DNA of 64,000 nt from a virus (lineage: Duplodnaviria > Caudoviricetes), in the IMG/VR virus record IMGVR_UViG_3300048998_000149, positions 1 to 64,000 of that record. One strand, written 5' to 3'. A model generated the notes under the pieces. The model was not told where the DNA came from and did not search any database. It saw only the letters and a list, made by a program, of their open reading frames with translations. Positions 2,063 to 43,005 of this stretch are shown here, piece by piece. The position numbers and the translations under genes were made by a program. How positions within the stretch are numbered: the first letter of the stretch is position 1; every line of letters begins with the position of its first letter.

Positions 2063-2271
2063 GTTCCTTCTCCTGCCCTGATCAGCGCGTCTAGCTCGGC
2101 GTACCGGGACATCATTCGCGGATCGTCCGGCCGGCCGTACAAGCACTCCTTGGCCACCCTTTCCACCTCACGGAGTCGTCTGAACTCGGCCATGAGCCAT
2201 GCCAGCTTCGGGGAGCTCTCGGCCAAGGCTCGATCGGCGATAGCTCGGAACTCCCGCTCGGTCTCACCCAT
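2059..2271 (-). CDS. hypothetical protein
   Basis: coupled ORF. Confidence 0.55.
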   Translation of the reverse strand: MGETEREFRAIADRALAESSPKLAWLMAEFRRLREVERVAKECLYGRPDDPRMMSRYAELDALIRAGEGT

Positions 2272-2713
2272 CGGTCTTCTCCTCGACAGCGGCGACCACC
2301 ACGTCCAGGGCCTCGGCCAGTTGCGGGCTCGCCTCGTGCACGCGTTGTCGCACCGACGGCCGCCAGTGGGGCGCCAGCGCGGTCGCGGCGGCGACGACGG
2401 ATCGGTTTTTCTCCAGCCCGGCACGGAAACCGGCGTCGAACACGGAGGGCTCGAACTCGCGGGCGTACTGCTCCTCCATCACGAAGTCGATGCTGCCTGA
2501 CGCGGTTCCGGAAGAGATGCGTTCGTTCTCGTTCGCCTTCGCGTCGATCTGCTGCGCAATGTGCACCGTCATGGCGTTGAACATCACCGGGTCGCTCACG
2601 ATCAAAAACGAGCAGATCCGACACAGCATGATCGTCGGCAAATCCATGTCGAACGACACCGGCGCCACGTCCTCGGTGCCGCCACAGTTCGAGCACTCCG
2701 GCTCACTCGTCAT
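2264..2713 (-). CDS. hypothetical zinc-finger protein
   Basis: CSNC...CRIC; coupled ORF. Confidence 0.65.
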   Translation of the reverse strand: MTSEPECSNCGGTEDVAPVSFDMDLPTIMLCRICSFLIVSDPVMFNAMTVHIAQQIDAKANENERISSGTASGSIDFVMEEQYAREFEPSVFDAGFRAGLEKNRSVVAAATALAPHWRPSVRQRVHEASPQLAEALDVVVAAVEEKTDG

Positions 2714-3044
2714 CGCCCTGGACCTCCGCCCCCGTCTGGCCCCCGCCGCTCTCCAGCTCGGCCACCTTCGCGTCGATCACCTGCGCAATGTGCAGCGCGA
2801 TGCTCCGTGCAACCACAGCGCCGGCCTCGTCCCGGCTCGTCCACGAGGACTGTCTGATCTTCTCGGCCGTCTCCCGCAGGATCCGCACCTGCGCCGCCCG
2901 GGCAATGTCCCCAGTGAACTCGTCCCACTCGCCCGCGGCGAACTTCAGTCCGCCGCTGTTGGGCGTCGCCGTCGATACGTGCACCGTCCCGTTGGCTTCG
3001 TTCACGTAAACGCGGACGGCTGCCGTTCCTTTCACCTCAGGCAT
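2703..3044 (-). CDS. hypothetical protein
   Basis: coupled ORF. Confidence 0.6.
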   Translation of the reverse strand: MPEVKGTAAVRVYVNEANGTVHVSTATPNSGGLKFAAGEWDEFTGDIARAAQVRILRETAEKIRQSSWTSRDEAGAVVARSIALHIAQVIDAKVAELESGGGQTGAEVQGDDE

Positions 3045-3238
3045 CAGTTGTTCCCTGCCCTCTTCGGGTCGTAGTGGGAGTTCTCCCGGCTAGTGCCGGC
3101 GCTGTACAGCTCCGTCAGATGCTCGGCGCTGTGCTGGCGCGCGACCTTCCGCATGCCAGCCAGATCTTGCGCTGGGATCGTGTTGACCGGCTCACCCCGA
3201 CCGGAGGCGCCGTCACTGTTGCGGGTACCGAAGCCCAT
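3044..3238 (-). CDS. hypothetical protein
   Basis: TGATG overlap with the next gene. Confidence 0.5.
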   Translation of the reverse strand: MGFGTRNSDGASGRGEPVNTIPAQDLAGMRKVARQHSAEHLTELYSAGTSRENSHYDPKRAGNN

Positions 3239-3239
3239 G

Positions 3240-3401
3240 TCAGTGCGCCCTCTTCCAGTTGTCGTAACGCTCGATCATCAGCGCGAGGAAGATGACGACG
3301 GCCGCTCCGATCGCCCACTTGGAATCCCCGACCCAGCCGTAGATCAGCAGGGACCAGGCGACGGTCGAGCCGATCAGCCAGTTCCGTGTCAATGCGCTCA
3401 T
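3240..3401 (-). CDS. small two-TM membrane protein
   Basis: two hydrophobic helices; GGAG RBS; first gene after the promoter. Confidence 0.65.
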   Translation of the reverse strand: MSALTRNWLIGSTVAWSLLIYGWVGDSKWAIGAAVVIFLALMIERYDNWKRAH

Positions 3402-6878: not shown

Positions 6879-7205
6879 TCAGGCGGCTATCTTGGCTTGC
6901 GCCCAGCCGCGTGCCACGGCCTCCCGGGCCTTCGGGAGGCTGCCGTACATGCCCACGACGCGGTCGGTCGGGACGTGGATCAGGAGCCACGGGGTGCCGG
7001 GGGACTCCTCGCGTTCGAACTTCCATTCGCCGTCGGCGCTGACCGCCGCCCAGGTCTCCATGCGGGTAGGCCCGTCGGGTTGGTTGACGCGGCGGAACGT
7101 TGGGCGTTGGAGGGTGAGCTTCGGGTCCAGGTCGACCATGGGCCGACGGGGACGTTTACGCGGGGTGGGGGTCCAGCCAGCGGGCGGGGTGGTGGAGAAC
7201 TGCAT
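6879..7205 (-). CDS. hypothetical early protein
   Basis: follows promoter 7250-7278; AGGAG RBS. Confidence 0.7.
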   Translation of the reverse strand: MQFSTTPPAGWTPTPRKRPRRPMVDLDPKLTLQRPTFRRVNQPDGPTRMETWAAVSADGEWKFEREESPGTPWLLIHVPTDRVVGMYGSLPKAREAVARGWAQAKIAA

Positions 7206-7249
7206 GGGGGCGCTCCTGGGGTGGAAGGTCGCGCTGTGCGTCTAGTTGC

Positions 7250-12880: not shown

Positions 12881-13977
12881 GCCGCTGACCCTTCGCTCGG
12901 TAGTTCCCCATCCAGGGCTGCCTGGACCGAATAGCCGTGGACGTTGATGTAGTCGGCGACCAGCTGGCCGAAGTGCGACAGCATGATTTTATCCCCTGAG
13001 AAGATGCCCAGCACTTCCTGGACGTCCGGCTTCTGGTTGATCCACGACGACACGTCCACGCTGGGAGCCTCACGGATCAGACGCTCGGCCTCATCGAAGT
13101 CGGCGGTGGCGAGCAGCTGGTCGAACACCTCGGATGCTGTGCGGCCCTTCTCGGCCTTGCTCGGACGCTGGTAGGGGGGCTTACGGGTCGGTGCGGGTTC
13201 CTCAACCAGTTCCGCATCCACCACCACCGGCACGTCGACGGGCTTGGCAGCCTTCGCGGCGGCCTCGATCTTTGCGCGCACGTTGGCGGGGGCGCGCTTC
13301 CACACCTGCACGAGCTCGGCCCGGTCGCCGTTGCACTTGGCGATCTCGGCGTCCCAGTCCACCTCAGGGGCGGGCATCTGCTCAACGAGGGTCGTGGGGA
13401 TGCCGTCCTCGCCCACGTTCTCGCCCAACTCCTCGGGCGTGTAGTGCACTCCAGAGAGGGCTTCCTCGCAGGCGTCGCGGGCAGCCTCGGAGATCGCACG
13501 GGCCTTGAGCATCGCCGCTGGGTACTGCTTCCACACAGCCTTGCCGGTCAACCCCGCCTGCTTTGCCCGCTCGATCGTCCAGATCGACTCGAACACAAAG
13601 TCCGGGTCGTCCTTGCGGATGATCTGCGCGGTGGCCTTGGTGTCGTTGCCGGTGACGCGCAGCCGGTGGCCAGCGCGGCGGACCAGTGCGCCAATCAGTG
13701 CGGCCGAAGCGGAAGGCTTGCCCTCGATGATGTGGATGCCGGTGATCGCGGCCATCGGCGCCAACCCGAGCATCTCGCCGTATTCCACGGCGTAGAGCAC
13801 GTTCGCGGGCTGCTTCTTGTACGCGGCCGGCAGCAGCCCGGACTGGGCCAGCTTCTCCGCGTAGTGGACCTTGGAGTTGAGGGAGTTGCGGGACCGGAAC
13901 TGCACGATCTCTGCGCCCGGCGAAGACGCCTCGATGGTCTCGGTCTGCTCGACAAGCGGGACTGATGGCTCAGTCAT
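12877..13977 (-). CDS. RecT/Red-beta-like single-strand annealing protein
   Basis: LAQSGLLP..Y..QPANVL..VEYG..LGL.PM.A...IHIIEGKP...W.QYP..ML.ARA. Confidence 0.8.
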   Translation of the reverse strand: MTEPSVPLVEQTETIEASSPGAEIVQFRSRNSLNSKVHYAEKLAQSGLLPAAYKKQPANVLYAVEYGEMLGLAPMAAITGIHIIEGKPSASAALIGALVRRAGHRLRVTGNDTKATAQIIRKDDPDFVFESIWTIERAKQAGLTGKAVWKQYPAAMLKARAISEAARDACEEALSGVHYTPEELGENVGEDGIPTTLVEQMPAPEVDWDAEIAKCNGDRAELVQVWKRAPANVRAKIEAAAKAAKPVDVPVVVDAELVEEPAPTRKPPYQRPSKAEKGRTASEVFDQLLATADFDEAERLIREAPSVDVSSWINQKPDVQEVLGIFSGDKIMLSHFGQLVADYINVHGYSVQAALDGELPSEGSAA

Positions 13978-14151
13978 GACGGTGGTGCCTTCCAGTGGGG
14001 TGGTAACGCCCGGGGTGGTGGGCGCGTATTCAGTTAGGGCCCTCGGCGGCGATACTCGTTTGGGTGTCGCTTCATCGATAGCCGCCGAGGGAGTTCTTAG
14101 GCCCCGCAGCGGCGGCGGAGACCCTCATCTTCGCCCGCCGCTGCGGGAGTC

Positions 14152-14871
14152 TCAGGCGGCGGACTTTCTCTCCACCGTAATGCCGTCATAGATCACGTTC
14201 TTGCGGACCGCGTCGTTGACGATGCCAGCCAGCTTGTCCTCGCCAGCTGCGGCGAGATCGTGGGCCAGCTCCCGAACCTTCGTCACCTTCGGCTTCGCAG
14301 CGCCGAGGAACGCGAGGGCCCGCTGCGCAACGGCGCAGGCGAACTGCTCCGGGTCCGAGTGCGGGGTAATGTCGGTGGCCTTCGCATCGAGCGCGGCAGC
14401 CCACTCGGCGGACACCAGCGCAGACAGTGCGGCGATGACCTGCGGCAGATCCACGTAGTACTCGTTATGGGTCTTCCGGCCGATCTTGATGTCGCCACCG
14501 GACTGCGGCACGACCAAGCCCGACATGGGGATGCCGTCCTGTTCGCCGACTGCCTCGAACAGTTCCTCTTCCAGGATTTCCTTGCCGGTCTCCGCCACAG
14601 TCTTGAACGCGTTGCCGTAGTCGGCGATCAGTTCGCGTACGCCCTGGACGGCGCGGATCAGGGCGAAGGTGTCCTCGCGGCTGCGGACGGTGCGCTCGGC
14701 GCGGACCTTCGCCACGGCCTCGTTCAGGCGCGTGGTCAGCAGTAGGCGGGTGTCGTGGGGGGTGGGCAGCCCTGGGAGCTGCCGTTCCGGGAACGGAACG
14801 AGGGACTGTGAAAACACGCCGGTGTCCGAGGGGGTGGAGTCGGACCCGGCACCTGGGGTGGTCGGTGCCAT
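14152..14871 (-). CDS. hypothetical protein, first gene of the leftward operon (start uncertain)
   Basis: long ORF right after promoter 14879-14908; the first ~50 nt form two hairpins. Confidence 0.65.
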   Translation of the reverse strand: MAPTTPGAGSDSTPSDTGVFSQSLVPFPERQLPGLPTPHDTRLLLTTRLNEAVAKVRAERTVRSREDTFALIRAVQGVRELIADYGNAFKTVAETGKEILEEELFEAVGEQDGIPMSGLVVPQSGGDIKIGRKTHNEYYVDLPQVIAALSALVSAEWAAALDAKATDITPHSDPEQFACAVAQRALAFLGAAKPKVTKVRELAHDLAAAGEDKLAGIVNDAVRKNVIYDGITVERKSAA

Positions 14872-14878
14872 ACCTCAG

Positions 14879-14908
14879 ATAATAGACCTAGACCTAAGGT
14901 CTATACAA
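14879..14908 (-). promoter_or_regulatory. leftward promoter TTGTAT-N18-TATTAT with palindromic operator TAGACCTAAGGTCTA (14889-14903)
   Basis: sequence match; palindrome lies in the spacer. Confidence 0.75.
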
Positions 14909-14916
14909 GACCCTAT

Positions 14917-15297
14917 TTAGGCGGCCTTGGAGATGGCTCTTTTAGCTGGCCAGGCCATCATCACCGCGTCGTTCCCCGCGGCCAGGTAGGCCTCTGCCGC
15001 CTCGCGGAGCACCGCCGGGACGGACGATCCTGCGGCGACTATCAGGTCGCGGCACTCGTGGAATCGGTCCGCGCTCTGTTTCCAGCGGACTGTGCGGACT
15101 GGTCCGACACTGCCTCGCGGCGCGCGGCGCTGTTGGGGGAGGAGGTGCCCACGGCCGGCTTGGGCGAGCCGCGCCGCCGTGATGATCCAGTGAAAGCACA
15201 GCTCGCCTACCGACTCGCCACTAGCCTCGGCCGCGTCATGGAGACGGCTGGCCAGGGACTCTGGGAGCGGCACCTGCGGACGGTACTGACGGGGCAT
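14917..15297 (-). CDS. tandem ribbon-helix-helix regulator (candidate repressor)
   Basis: two RHH-like units; leaderless ATG 7 nt after TACCCT. Confidence 0.6.
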   Translation of the reverse strand: MPRQYRPQVPLPESLASRLHDAAEASGESVGELCFHWIITAARLAQAGRGHLLPQQRRAPRGSVGPVRTVRWKQSADRFHECRDLIVAAGSSVPAVLREAAEAYLAAGNDAVMMAWPAKRAISKAA

Positions 15298-15466: not shown

Positions 15467-15829
15467 TTGGCCGGCTTGAAGGGGGCGGCGCCATCCATCG
15501 AAAGGATTGTCGTGAGCCTAGACGCTGTGGCGTCGCGAGTCCATCCGGACACGCCGAAACGCCCCCCGGCCGCGCTCCGCCTGCTGGCGGAACTGTACAG
15601 GCGAGCCACCCCCGACTCTGTCACTGTGAGCCGCGCCGAGCTGGCGCAGAGCCTCGCCGTCTCGGAGCGCACGATCCAGCGCGCCAGTCGCGCCCTGGTC
15701 GTCGCCGATCTGATCGCCGTCACCGGTGACCCGAATGACAGGTACGCACCGAACACGTACCGAGTGCGGCTGCAACCGCCGCACCGGGGCGGTATGTGTG
15801 CGTTTTCCTCTGTGTGGAACAGGTTCTAG
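15467..15829 (+). CDS. winged HTH DNA-binding protein
   Basis: VSRAELAQSLAVSERTIQRASRAL...LI...N.Y. Confidence 0.75.
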   Translation: MAGLKGAAPSIERIVVSLDAVASRVHPDTPKRPPAALRLLAELYRRATPDSVTVSRAELAQSLAVSERTIQRASRALVVADLIAVTGDPNDRYAPNTYRVRLQPPHRGGMCAFSSVWNRF

Positions 15830-16205
15830 GCACGGTCTGCCACCAGTCGGGCACGGGCTGTGAGATCCAGGTGTAGTGGATCTACCGCTTGGCGCAGTCT
15901 GGTGACAGTGATGTTTAACCGTGGGCTATCGGTGGCACCGCGAGCGTCACGAACGCGCTAACGTCACCCACCAGCGTTACCCCGAAAGTCGCCCGCCACC
16001 CCTGCCTCACAGGCAACTGGGCCACCCGGGGGTAGCTGCCGTTGAACCCGTTTCGCATTGAGGGGCGCACCAGCCACCCCGTCAAAGGGTGCCCCCTCAA
16101 TGCGGCGCGGCTTCATGACAAAAGGAGAACCGCCGGCAGGGCTTCGGGAGGGAGGCACCACACCTCTACCACTGCGCCCTGCCGGCGGTCTGAAAGGACC
16201 AGCAG

Positions 16206-17312
16206 ATGTCTAGATCATCGACTAGCCCTTACCGTACCGATCTCACGACCACAGCCCCCACCCCTGGGTTTTGCGGTGCTGGCATCGATACGGGCACCCA
16301 GGGATCTCACGATAGGCCATCGCCACGACAGGATCGGGGTGGTGGCCGTCGTGGAACCCAGGGGTGCACGGACAGGATCGCACATACAAACGCGCCTGTC
16401 TTGTCTCAACGTCCACTTTCTGAGGTAAGGCGACCTTTTGCCTCTGCGAACGGTCAGCCAGGGACTCTTGGGACTTCCTTAGAGGTCGACCGGTCCTCTT
16501 GCCCGGCACGCCCCGACGCCAAGGGCGTCGTGCGCCACGGGAACCGCAACTCCTACAGCAACTTCTACTGCCGCTGCCCCGACGCCCGCGAGGACCACCG
16601 CCTCTACGCGAAACGGCAACGCGAAGGGCGCCTCCGTCCCCGAATGGTGGACTCGACCGGCTCGGCGCGGCGCCTGCAAGCCCTCGCGGTCATGGGCTAC
16701 GGCTCCCCCTTCCTGGCCGAGCGGCTCGGGGTCACTGACACCCGGGTACGGAAGCTCCGACAGCCGTTCTATCCGGTCATCCGCACAGTTCAGGCGCAGG
16801 CTATCGACGCGCTGTACCGATCGCTGAGCATGACACCAGCAGTCGGACTGGCCGCCGACATGGTCCGCGCCAGGGCTGCCGCAGGCTGGGCGCCCGCGCT
16901 GGCGTGGGACGAGGGCGCCATCGACGACCCGTCCGCTGTTCCTGACTATGGCCCCTCTGTCGACCCTGCGGTGAAGGAATGGGAAGCCGTCCTGGACGGC
17001 CAGTTCCCCCAGGAGTCTTCGCGGGGGAGAGGACCCGGACCTCGCGGTAAGCGGCTCCGCGAGGCCGCAGTGGTGTTCCTGACCGAGTCTGGCTGGTCTG
17101 CCTTAGCCATCGCCGAGATGCTCCACAGCACCGCCCGCACTGTGACCCGCGACCGTGAAGCAGCTCGCCAGGCTGGCTGGCGGTTCACGCACGACGAGGG
17201 TGTCGCACCTTCGAGTCATGATGAACGTGCCGCTCACCTAGCGGTGATCACCACCCCACCCCATGCCGAGGCACCCCACTCGGCAACTCAAGAGAGGCAC
17301 CACGCCGCATGA
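16206..17312 (+). CDS. HTH/zinc-finger DNA-binding protein
   Basis: HG..Y...CRC; RRLQAL...G....LAERLGV; C-terminal IAEMLHSTARTVTRD. Confidence 0.7.
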   Translation: MSRSSTSPYRTDLTTTAPTPGFCGAGIDTGTQGSHDRPSPRQDRGGGRRGTQGCTDRIAHTNAPVLSQRPLSEVRRPFASANGQPGTLGTSLEVDRSSCPARPDAKGVVRHGNRNSYSNFYCRCPDAREDHRLYAKRQREGRLRPRMVDSTGSARRLQALAVMGYGSPFLAERLGVTDTRVRKLRQPFYPVIRTVQAQAIDALYRSLSMTPAVGLAADMVRARAAAGWAPALAWDEGAIDDPSAVPDYGPSVDPAVKEWEAVLDGQFPQESSRGRGPGPRGKRLREAAVVFLTESGWSALAIAEMLHSTARTVTRDREAARQAGWRFTHDEGVAPSSHDERAAHLAVITTPPHAEAPHSATQERHHAA

Positions 17313-17713: not shown

Positions 17714-18816
17714 GCACTTCTGAGCCCTTCGCTGTGGAAGCGGACGAAGATGAGACCCCTTTTGCATTGGTGGGGGACTGGGTGCTACTTGCCCCGATTC
17801 CCGACCGAGCAGTCCGCGTGTACGCGCTGCTCCGAGCGCACGTGAACCACGCCAGGAAGGACAACGAGGCGTGGCCATCACAGGAGAAGCTGGCTGCGGC
17901 CCTCGGCTTAAGCAAGCCTGACGACATCGGCAAGTCGATCAAGATCCTGGAGGGGATCGGCGCCGTCCGCAAGAAGTACCGCACGGGCCGCAAGGGTCGG
18001 TACGCCGTGTACGTCGTTCGCCTCCACGCGCCCGCTGGCTACACCGGACTACGCAGCGCGGCGGATGACCTGCACCGTCCAGGCGCGATCGAGCAGCTCG
18101 TCGAGGAACGAGTGAAGCGGCTCCCGCACCGAACCCACGCTGCAATCGCAGCTGCCTCAACGGGGAACACCCCTGATTTGGGGTCACCCGTTAGGACCAC
18201 CCCAGATTTGGGGGCAACCCCAGATCGAGGGGTTGGGAACACCCCCAATCAGGGGTGGGAACCATATAAAGGGGAACCAGACGAAGGAGCTTTCAAGACA
18301 CACACCGCGCTGCCGCGCGGCGAGGTGTGTGACCCCGAACCTCCAGTCATCGAGTTCCCCGACGAGATAGCGGCCACCGACCCCGACGACGCCGCAGCAG
18401 AGTGGGGAACCCGACCGCGTGCCGCGCGTCGAAGTGCAACGCGGTGGAATGCCACCACTCACAGCCCGGCCGCTCGCCAGCTGATGGACGTCTACGTCAA
18501 GGACCACCGTGTCCCCGCCGACACCATGAAACGGCTGCTGCCGGTCGTGACGAAGCTGCTCAAGGAGGACATCCCCGGCGATGTCATTCTCCAGGCCATC
18601 CCGAAGTGCTTCGCCGAAAACTGTGGACCGGTGCTGCTCCCAGACTTCGTGGCCAAAGTGATGCACCAGAGAGACAGCTCCCTGGAACCCGAGCTGGGCA
18701 CCACCGGCCGCCGGCTCCAGGCAGCTGAACGACTCCGCGAGGAGATGCGCGCGGCCGACGCTGCCGAAGCGGCCGGTCGAATCAAGAACACCACCCCACG
18801 AGCAATCACAGGATGA
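17710..18816 (+). CDS. replication initiator protein (N-terminal wHTH, lambda O-like layout)
   Basis: AVRVYALL...AWPSQEKLAAALG; internal iterons. Confidence 0.8.
   Translation: MSTSEPFAVEADEDETPFALVGDWVLLAPIPDRAVRVYALLRAHVNHARKDNEAWPSQEKLAAALGLSKPDDIGKSIKILEGIGAVRKKYRTGRKGRYAVYVVRLHAPAGYTGLRSAADDLHRPGAIEQLVEERVKRLPHRTHAAIAAASTGNTPDLGSPVRTTPDLGATPDRGVGNTPNQGWEPYKGEPDEGAFKTHTALPRGEVCDPEPPVIEFPDEIAATDPDDAAAEWGTRPRAARRSATRWNATTHSPAARQLMDVYVKDHRVPADTMKRLLPVVTKLLKEDIPGDVILQAIPKCFAENCGPVLLPDFVAKVMHQRDSSLEPELGTTGRRLQAAERLREEMRAADAAEAAGRIKNTTPRAITG
18169..18270. repeat. four iteron-like 16-mers ACCCC-N6-GGGG followed by an AT-rich CATATAAA: probable origin of replication
   Basis: copies at 18169, 18199, 18217 and 18241 inside the initiator gene. 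Confidence 0.75.
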
Positions 18817-42927: not shown

Positions 42928-43005
42928 GGTGAGCGATGCCGAAGCGGACGAGGCCCAAGGTTGTGAACCTTGGTTTAGCGGGTTCGAGTCCCGTCGCTCA
43001 CCCCA
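42928..43005 (+). tRNA. tRNA-His (GTG)
   Basis: G-1 with GTGAGCG/CGCTCAC-C acceptor, CAAGG-TTGTGAA-CCTTG anticodon arm, GCGGG-TTCGAGT-CCCGT T arm, encoded CCA. Confidence 0.88.

Follow-up and report, generated by a model that had tools for sequence, protein, structure and literature searches.

The locus described here raises the question of what role could be played by a long stretch without a gene near the head of the rightward arm of a phage genome, in which sequence motifs that elsewhere mark start codons are displayed on hairpins. The window, that is the whole stretch of DNA that was analysed, corresponds to positions 1–64,000 of an IMG/VR record of a soil virus that is 100.5 kb long and has a GC content of 66%, for which a phage database search found no close relative among deposited phages, either by DNA or by protein. 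Orientation is leftward for the genes left of ~15315, a RecT-like protein among them, and rightward for the genes from 15512 on. The rightward order is a 105-aa HTH gene, the gap, ORF 16206–17312 (phrog_1590, HTH-like), a GIY-YIG-like endonuclease and an O-like replication initiator, and the gap therefore directly follows the small gene that opens the rightward early arm. This first gene (15512–15829, plus strand) begins with GTG after GAAAGGA, has a coding signal and weak Pfam HTH matches, and reaches with its last ~13 codons into the conserved block described below. The earlier note had proposed that 15830–16200 is a structured region presenting two motifs in hairpin loops with no start codon, either as a decoy or sponge RNA that titrates the factor recognising the start motif, or as the rightward loading site for this factor. 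As a whole this interpretation is partly supported by our analyses, and the second option is close to the reading that we prefer.

GC3 and a codon-usage score trained on the long ORFs of the phage gave no coding signal over ~15760–16450, and in the gap itself (15830–16205) the codon-usage score is negative and stops are present in all six frames. Comparison of the frames with two relatives, L004 and the more distant P0064, found no conserved small ORF or leader peptide in 15830–16205. An ORF at 16058–16213 contains frame shifts in both relatives, and the possibility that a conserved leader peptide or upstream ORF ends at ATGTCTAG was rejected because its frame is kept in neither. The protein search with plus-strand ORF 16042–16428 matched only P0067, a near-twin of L004, and the search with minus-strand ORF 15964–16161 gave no match. 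There is a faint three-base GC periodicity over 15790–16180, one phase having 0.75–0.85 GC and the others 0.53–0.70, despite stops everywhere. Substitutions relative to L004 are distributed 14, 8 and 18 by frame position, a periodicity that is not significant. Searches with Rfam 15 at gathering thresholds left the element without a match, the sole pass in the window being a tRNA at 42931, and a permissive scan of 15600–16700 returned only miRNA-hairpin noise far below threshold; group I or II introns and other large known RNAs were rejected as having no Rfam support. A consensus scan found no promoter and no plus-strand terminator at the element. The word GGAACAGGTTCTA was also considered as a repeated promoter word and was rejected, its occurrences being chance matches inside genes.

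The only useful nucleotide relative is L004, a 5-kb soil metagenome contig found by scanning metagenomes with the family of the downstream protein, so that nucleotide comparisons are between two sequences and all other comparisons are derived from proteins. Scans of IMG/VR with peptide sets and DNA patterns yielded nothing beyond distant protein relatives (L002, L003) and chance 15-mer matches, a scan of GTDB genomes gave one distant Saccharopolyspora match, and three hits of the protein search (P0061, P0062, P0066) are spurious low-complexity repeats. L004 carries a homologue of the small HTH gene at 1889–2158, followed on its minus strand (2172–3383) by a 403-aa IS605-type TnpB with OrfB_IS605 and Cas12f1-like TNB domains. 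The insertion point of this tnpB, at window position ~15772, falls precisely where the HTH gene gives way to the element, which is thereby split from its upstream gene; co-transcription with the HTH gene is therefore not obligatory.

Over 15774–16642 the window and L004 are 79.5% identical. Regional identities, computed after removal of the tnpB insert, are 82% for 15830–16205 and 84% for 16206–16505, compared with 65–85% for the leftward genes, 70% for the divergent promoter gap, 56–71% for third codon positions of neighbouring genes and only ~45–55% to the right of ~16510. The most conserved part of the element is 16190–16260, which includes the Shine-Dalgarno sequence AAAGGA and ATG of ORF 16206–17312 (16193–16208, 92–93% identical to L004). 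The stretch most conserved with L004 is found elsewhere, at 14881–15030 (90–95%), where it covers the 3' end of a 132-aa regulator gene and contains a palindrome, TAGACC-TAA-GGTCTA, at 14889–14903. Alignment of the 5' half of the element with L004 requires indels of 1, 1, 3, 1, 2, 4 and 1 nt, a pattern that is not one of triplets. Both large stems are unchanged in L004 or altered only to a G-U pair, and the loops vary while keeping the motifs. Substitutions avoid the predicted stems (23 broken pairs versus 33 expected, P = 0.007; P = 0.004 in the reciprocal test). From the identity to L004, the indels and the retention of stems we conclude that the element is under constraint at the nucleotide level over about twice the length given in the earlier note, whose limits were too narrow: conservation and pairing span ~15790–16510 on the plus strand. 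This ~720-nt element consists of an untranslated 5' half and a probably translated, structure-constrained 3' half. Its non-coding leader (15830–16205), without coding signal or Rfam family and with its non-triplet indels, is most likely a conserved RNA structure and not a gene.

The stems named in the earlier note were all recovered at their positions by reading the sequence and with a repeat finder. The first, CTGCCACCAG/CTGGTGACAG (15837–46/15899–908), forms 9 of 10 pairs and encloses a predicted hairpin AGATCCA/TGGATCT (15863–15883, arms 15863–69/15877–83) with the loop GGUGUAG. In L004 the 5' arm of this hairpin has C>U and A>G changes, and all 7 pairs are kept on the plus strand only, by G-U wobble. 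The first of three copies of CCACCCC (15996–16002) lies unpaired between two short helices, 15991–95/16018–22 and 16003–06/16012–15, in the alignment fold. Its unpaired probability is 0.77, and it is identical in L004. Further on is hairpin Hb (16054–16104), with a perfect 12-bp arm, one bulged C and then 5 bp (GCACC/GGTGC), closing a 16-nt loop, AGCCACCCCGUCAAAG, that carries CCACCCC at 16074–80. The stem is as described in the earlier note except that the 3' arm has no bulged C, the bulge being C16066 of the 5' arm only. In L004 the stems of Hb are kept, with a G-U pair created by an A>G change, and the motif is retained in a loop shorter by 3 nt.

An A-rich linker, ACAAAAGGAGAA (16117–16128), whose AAAGGAGAA part is kept in L004 and whose A-rich run is compatible with P0064, separates Hb from hairpin Hc (16129–16189). 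Hc has a perfect 14-bp stem (arms 16129–42/16176–89) that is identical in L004, an inner helix GGAGG/CCUCU and the apical loop CACCACA. It holds GGAGGCACCAC at 16151–61, the sole perfect copy without a start codon. The claim that both motifs are in hairpin loops needs refinement here: both are displayed at hairpin apices, but in Hc only CACCACA is in the apical loop, since GGAGG (16151–55) pairs with CCUCU (16163–67). The absence of a start codon likewise applies in a restricted sense. No ATG, GTG or TTG opens an ORF of at least 40 codons within 28 nt of the GAGGCACCAC at 16152, but a conserved ATG, that of ORF 16206, is present 45 nt downstream. Beyond this ATG we found a 12-bp complementary pair, CACCCCTGGGTT/AACCCAGGGGTG (16259–70/16355–66), with the third CCACCCC at 16258–64 within it. 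The alignment fold also contains a hairpin GCCAUCGCCACGA/UCGGGGUGGUGGC (16316–16346) in which G>A and C>U changes in L004 keep pairing on the plus strand only. The 3' arm of this hairpin, GGGGUGGUGGC (16336–46), is complementary to both CCACCCC and CACCAC; read as GGGGTGGTGGC (16336–16346), it is in mRNA sense and inside the ORF. In the rightward arm sense-strand GGGGTGG is rare, with 4 copies versus more than 20 of CCACCCC.

Both motifs belong to a system that extends over the whole genome. GAGGCACCAC or RAGGCACC is found 0–4 nt before about 20 starts (21 counted), always in mRNA sense, and start-motif matches number 17 versus 2.9 expected. At those starts CCACCCC is usually present 2–51 nt upstream of RAGGCACC. 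Each of 21 other copies of GAGGCACCAC precedes the start of an ORF of at least 40 codons, whereas the copy at 16152 does not. CCACCCC occurs 73 times versus ~43 expected, with a strand that depends on the direction of the genes. Shuffling of its flanks makes it less often unpaired inside a closing stem (P = 0.003 and 0.006). The copies in the ~720-nt element, three of CCACCCC and one of GAGGCACCAC, are in the orientation of a rightward mRNA. CCACCCC hairpin loops without the second motif were also seen in tandem near operon heads, at 14837/14861 (minus strand), 28297/28328 (plus strand) and 7168–7224 (minus strand).

Structural conservation in homologues is seen in the stems kept in L004, and P0064 is compatible with different stems carrying the same apical motifs. 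The ORF call of P0064 extends 55 codons upstream into the leader, and degenerate back-translation of these residues, in which third codon positions are left undetermined by the protein sequence, yields two stems. The first has 13 possible pairs, of which 8 are fixed Watson-Crick, and a changed upper stem around GARGGNGGNACNACNCC, with an apical GAGGGNGGNACNACNCC as in Hc; the second has 11 possible pairs, 7 of them fixed, around a loop compatible with CCACCCC. When those residues were shuffled 2000 times, two separate stems of this quality appeared once. These predicted stems support the view that the distant relative keeps the apical display of CCACCCC and GAGG..ACCAC on stems of different sequence.

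The region is structured, but on the plus strand other parts of the genome exceed it. RNAfold gave –183.7 kcal/mol for the plus strand with z = –4.0 against dinucleotide shuffles, and z = –3.7 for the minus strand. When GC-corrected folding energies of 300-nt windows were ranked within the phage's own sequence, the element ranked 25–46 of 669 on the plus strand and, more extreme, 3–8 of 669 on the minus strand. By the same measure windows 18151–18450, 13951–14250 and genome positions 81451–81750 are more structured than the element. Perfect inverted repeats with arms of at least 11 nt number 22 in the genome versus 2.9 in Markov simulations, and the 14-bp (16129–89) and 12-bp (16054–104) repeats of the element, 25 nt apart, are the third and about the eighth longest in the 100.5 kb. 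The longest perfect inverted repeat of the genome, with 15-bp arms, is at 81669–81727.

Motif orientation and the wobble-compatible changes in hairpins 15863–83, Hb and 16316–46 favour the plus strand as the one that acts. Other measures discriminate less: substitutions avoid stems on both strands (P = 0.001–0.01), pairs are kept in 17 of 40 cases on the plus strand versus 8 of 25 on the minus strand, and a strand-symmetric wobble count of 28 versus 16 toward the plus strand is a trend only (p = 0.10). The two-sequence alignment folds alike on both strands, with 6 versus 8 compensatory pairs, and covariation cannot separate the strands because only two nucleotide sequences are available.

The element continues into ORF 16206, whose 5' coding part (16206–16510, plus strand) specifies an N-terminal extension of ~91–100 residues, predicted to be disordered, with atypical codon usage. 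Residues 1–91 have a pLDDT below 50 in the AlphaFold2 model, and the ORF shows no codon-usage signal before ~16450. The IMG gene call for this protein (P0001, 222 aa) starts only at ~16644. Nonetheless the extension is probably translated, since the frame, together with the start, is kept in nine relatives (L004, P0002–P0005, P0060, P0063–P0065), being preserved through many indels among the ten sequences, while distant homologues are without an extension and start ~10 residues before the folded domain. In all relatives its invariant PTPG and QGC blocks are the arms of the 12-bp pair 16259–70/16355–66, and the conserved block PRxxRGG is the hairpin 16316–46. Identity of the extension to L004 is 0.85, 0.90 and 0.78 by codon position, and the third-position value of 0.78 indicates extra constraint there. 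At the other end of the ORF, the codons for the C-terminal EAPHSA (17293–17303) double as the start motif GAGGCACCAC of the next gene, and endings in EAPHS(A/T) or TTPS (CCACCCC) recur in P0003–P0006, P0060 and L004.

A sharp mosaic breakpoint at ~16510, where the disordered extension meets the folded domain, is marked by a drop in identity to L004 from ~80% to ~45–55%. The same breakpoint is found in two independent pairs, the window versus L004 and L004 versus P0002, with the C-terminal domains diverged. Because the leader and the extension stay together across it in both pairs, this suggests that they form a control cassette independent of the folded domain of the protein.

The reading that we favour, with a probability of only about 0.4, is that the element is a cis-acting regulatory leader of the plus strand carrying a start-less copy of the start module of the phage. 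The element would then be the 5' leader and the first ~100 codons of a putative mRNA for the first gene after the HTH gene. Its two long hairpins would hold at their tips both parts of the module, the CCACCCC loop and GAGGCACCAC, with no start behind. Whatever reads this module at the ~20 real starts, perhaps the ribosome or else a phage or host factor, would also dock at the element, and docking there would be non-productive, beside the weaker AAAGGA-ATG start that belongs to the gene itself. The leader may thus serve as a cis operator or as a standby platform that sets the output of the downstream predicted DNA-binding protein, and perhaps of the operon; as a side effect it would soak up some of the factor. 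Autogenous translational operators, as in the ribosomal-protein operons of Escherichia coli and for RegA and gp32 of phage T4, mimic the main target of their regulator. The element resembles them in that a structure in the gene's own leader copies a site recognised elsewhere. Unlike in those operators, no masking is predicted for the ribosome-binding site of ORF 16206. Its occlusion is 0.39 versus 0.36–0.44 at other starts, which is ordinary, and simple masking of the Shine-Dalgarno sequence and AUG was therefore rejected.

The same display of motifs could serve in trans. A discrete ~370-nt plus-strand RNA released from the early transcript would titrate the reader of the module and tune ~20 genes, much as the earlier note had it, and such an RNA could be long-lived given its very stable stems. 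Both motifs are at hairpin apices, their display is conserved, and the only perfect GGAGGCACCAC without a start is the one at 16152. However, CsrB and RsmZ sponges have ~7–22 GGA repeats, are transcribed as discrete RNAs, each having a promoter and a terminator of its own, and act on a known protein partner. The element shares with them the presentation of a binding motif in hairpin loops of non-coding RNA, but its three copies of CCACCCC and one of GAGGCACCAC are few for this type and it has no Rfam match; no promoter was found by the consensus scan, and no plus-strand terminator follows. Conservation is also continuous into the start of the next gene, and because the element runs unbroken into the Shine-Dalgarno sequence, the ATG and the first ~100 codons, a cis leader fits better than a free-standing RNA. 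We consider a sponge unlikely. In Actinobacteria the 6C small RNA has exposed C-rich loops that need no chaperone to base-pair with G-rich stretches of mRNAs (PMC6486639). C-rich hairpin loops in a high-GC Gram-positive setting are a point in common with 6C, but the Rfam model of 6C is not matched, and here the C-rich loops are in mRNA leaders genome-wide and not in one small RNA.

A control of transcription similar to that of phage lambda, in which Hb, Hc or both would be terminators or pause sites without a U tail, placed after an immediate-early HTH gene and ahead of delayed-early replication genes, and the CCACCCC hairpins would be nut- or put-like antitermination signals, seems to us just as doubtful. 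The nutR-tR1 region of lambda lies between cro and cII. Here too hairpins come right after a small HTH gene that opens the rightward early arm, with the replication genes farther on, in the order regulator, divergent gap, small HTH gene, element, DNA-binding protein, endonuclease and O-like initiator, and the tandem CCACCCC hairpins without the second motif near other operon heads are consistent with such a role. In contrast to nutR-tR1, comparison by position and hairpin shape gave no boxA or boxB similarity, and neither hairpin has a U-tract after it on the plus strand, where Hc is followed by CUGAAAGG and not by the U-rich run of an intrinsic terminator. Unlike a nut site, CCACCCC is moreover associated mostly with translation starts, and its 73 occurrences are far too many.

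A bolder reading, which we hold with equally little confidence, is that the phage uses a private translation-start code, a CCACCCC hairpin loop and then GAGGCACCAC, for which the element would be a dedicated RNA regulator. It would act either as a start-less mimic that titrates the reader or by pairing in trans with the ~20 early and middle start modules, through the GGGGUGGUGGC arm or through a minus-strand transcript.

An antisense small RNA of the minus strand, starting in the 5' part of ORF 16206 and ending at Hc as an intrinsic terminator, is improbable. It would cover the Shine-Dalgarno sequence and ATG of the ORF, and with its hairpin tip GUGGUGCCUCC, exactly complementary to the start motif, it could repress many starts. 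On this strand the linker reads as a U-rich run (UUCUCCUUUUGU) after Hc, whose stem-closed loop of 33 nt is beyond the range of the terminator scanner; the run that follows directly, TTCTCCTTTTGT, is kept in L004 and compatible in P0064. Minus-strand windows ranking 3 and 8 of 669 in GC-corrected stability and the position of the most conserved stretch, 16190–16260, also fit such an RNA. But both motif types are elsewhere strictly in mRNA sense, and wobble-type substitutions lean to the plus strand, for example in hairpins 15863–83 and 16316–46. No conserved minus-strand promoter was found, TACGGT at 16236–31 not being kept in P0003, P0004 and P0060, and on the plus strand the A-rich run can equally be read as AAAGGAG, which resembles a Shine-Dalgarno sequence.

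Very unlikely, in our view, is a functionless relic of a lost small gene, that is an orphaned start module in decaying sequence. The complete module without an ORF and the faint periodicity over 15790–16180 could be read in this way, and Cluster K phages too have rare orphan copies of their start-associated motif, SAS (PMC3203893). However, the region is more conserved than the synonymous sites of its neighbours, P0064 keeps stems with changed sequence, the substitution periodicity is not significant and stops occur in all frames. A replication origin or single-strand initiation signal at the DNA level is highly improbable: the O-like initiator gene is ~1.5 kb downstream of the element and conservation of the inverted repeats is seen on either strand, but no iterons, tandem repeats or DnaA boxes were found at the element, there is no AT-rich patch (GC 0.59–0.66), the arms are 27–84 nt apart, which suits single-strand folding and not binding by a dimeric protein, and the motifs belong to a system in mRNA sense.

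Among described systems the closest to the phage motifs is SAS/ESAS of Cluster K mycobacteriophages, in which an asymmetric motif with a Shine-Dalgarno core is located 3–7 bp before many non-structural starts (Pope et al. 2011, PMC3203893). It has one orientation, a second upstream element and rare copies away from gene starts, and a function in translation initiation has been suspected (PMC3203893). The sequence of SAS is 5'-GGGATAGGAGCCC with up to 2 deviations, ESAS is a 17-bp inverted repeat, and there was little support for RNA hairpins (PMC3203893). The phage genome as a whole likewise has a motif with a Shine-Dalgarno core before many starts in one orientation. Its sequences are different, GAGGCACCAC and CCACCCC loops being found here and not GGGATAGGAGCCC or the 17-bp inverted repeat, and its upstream element is a hairpin loop with variable stems. 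Also, the orphan copy here is inside a conserved 14-bp hairpin of a ~720-nt element, which has not been described for Cluster K. The phage motif system is therefore an analogue of SAS/ESAS and not a member.

For annotation these results carry a caution, in that the conserved 'residues' of a disordered extension are the arms of RNA stems. The SAS of Cluster K has been known since 2011, and an analogous two-part start signal is now found in an unrelated high-GC phage lineage. The conserved copy without a start, embedded in highly stable hairpins where an early operon begins, is a compact bait of ~140 nt (16054–16189) with which the putative reader of the module might be found, and the element offers a simple reporter test of whether such start signals act in translation.
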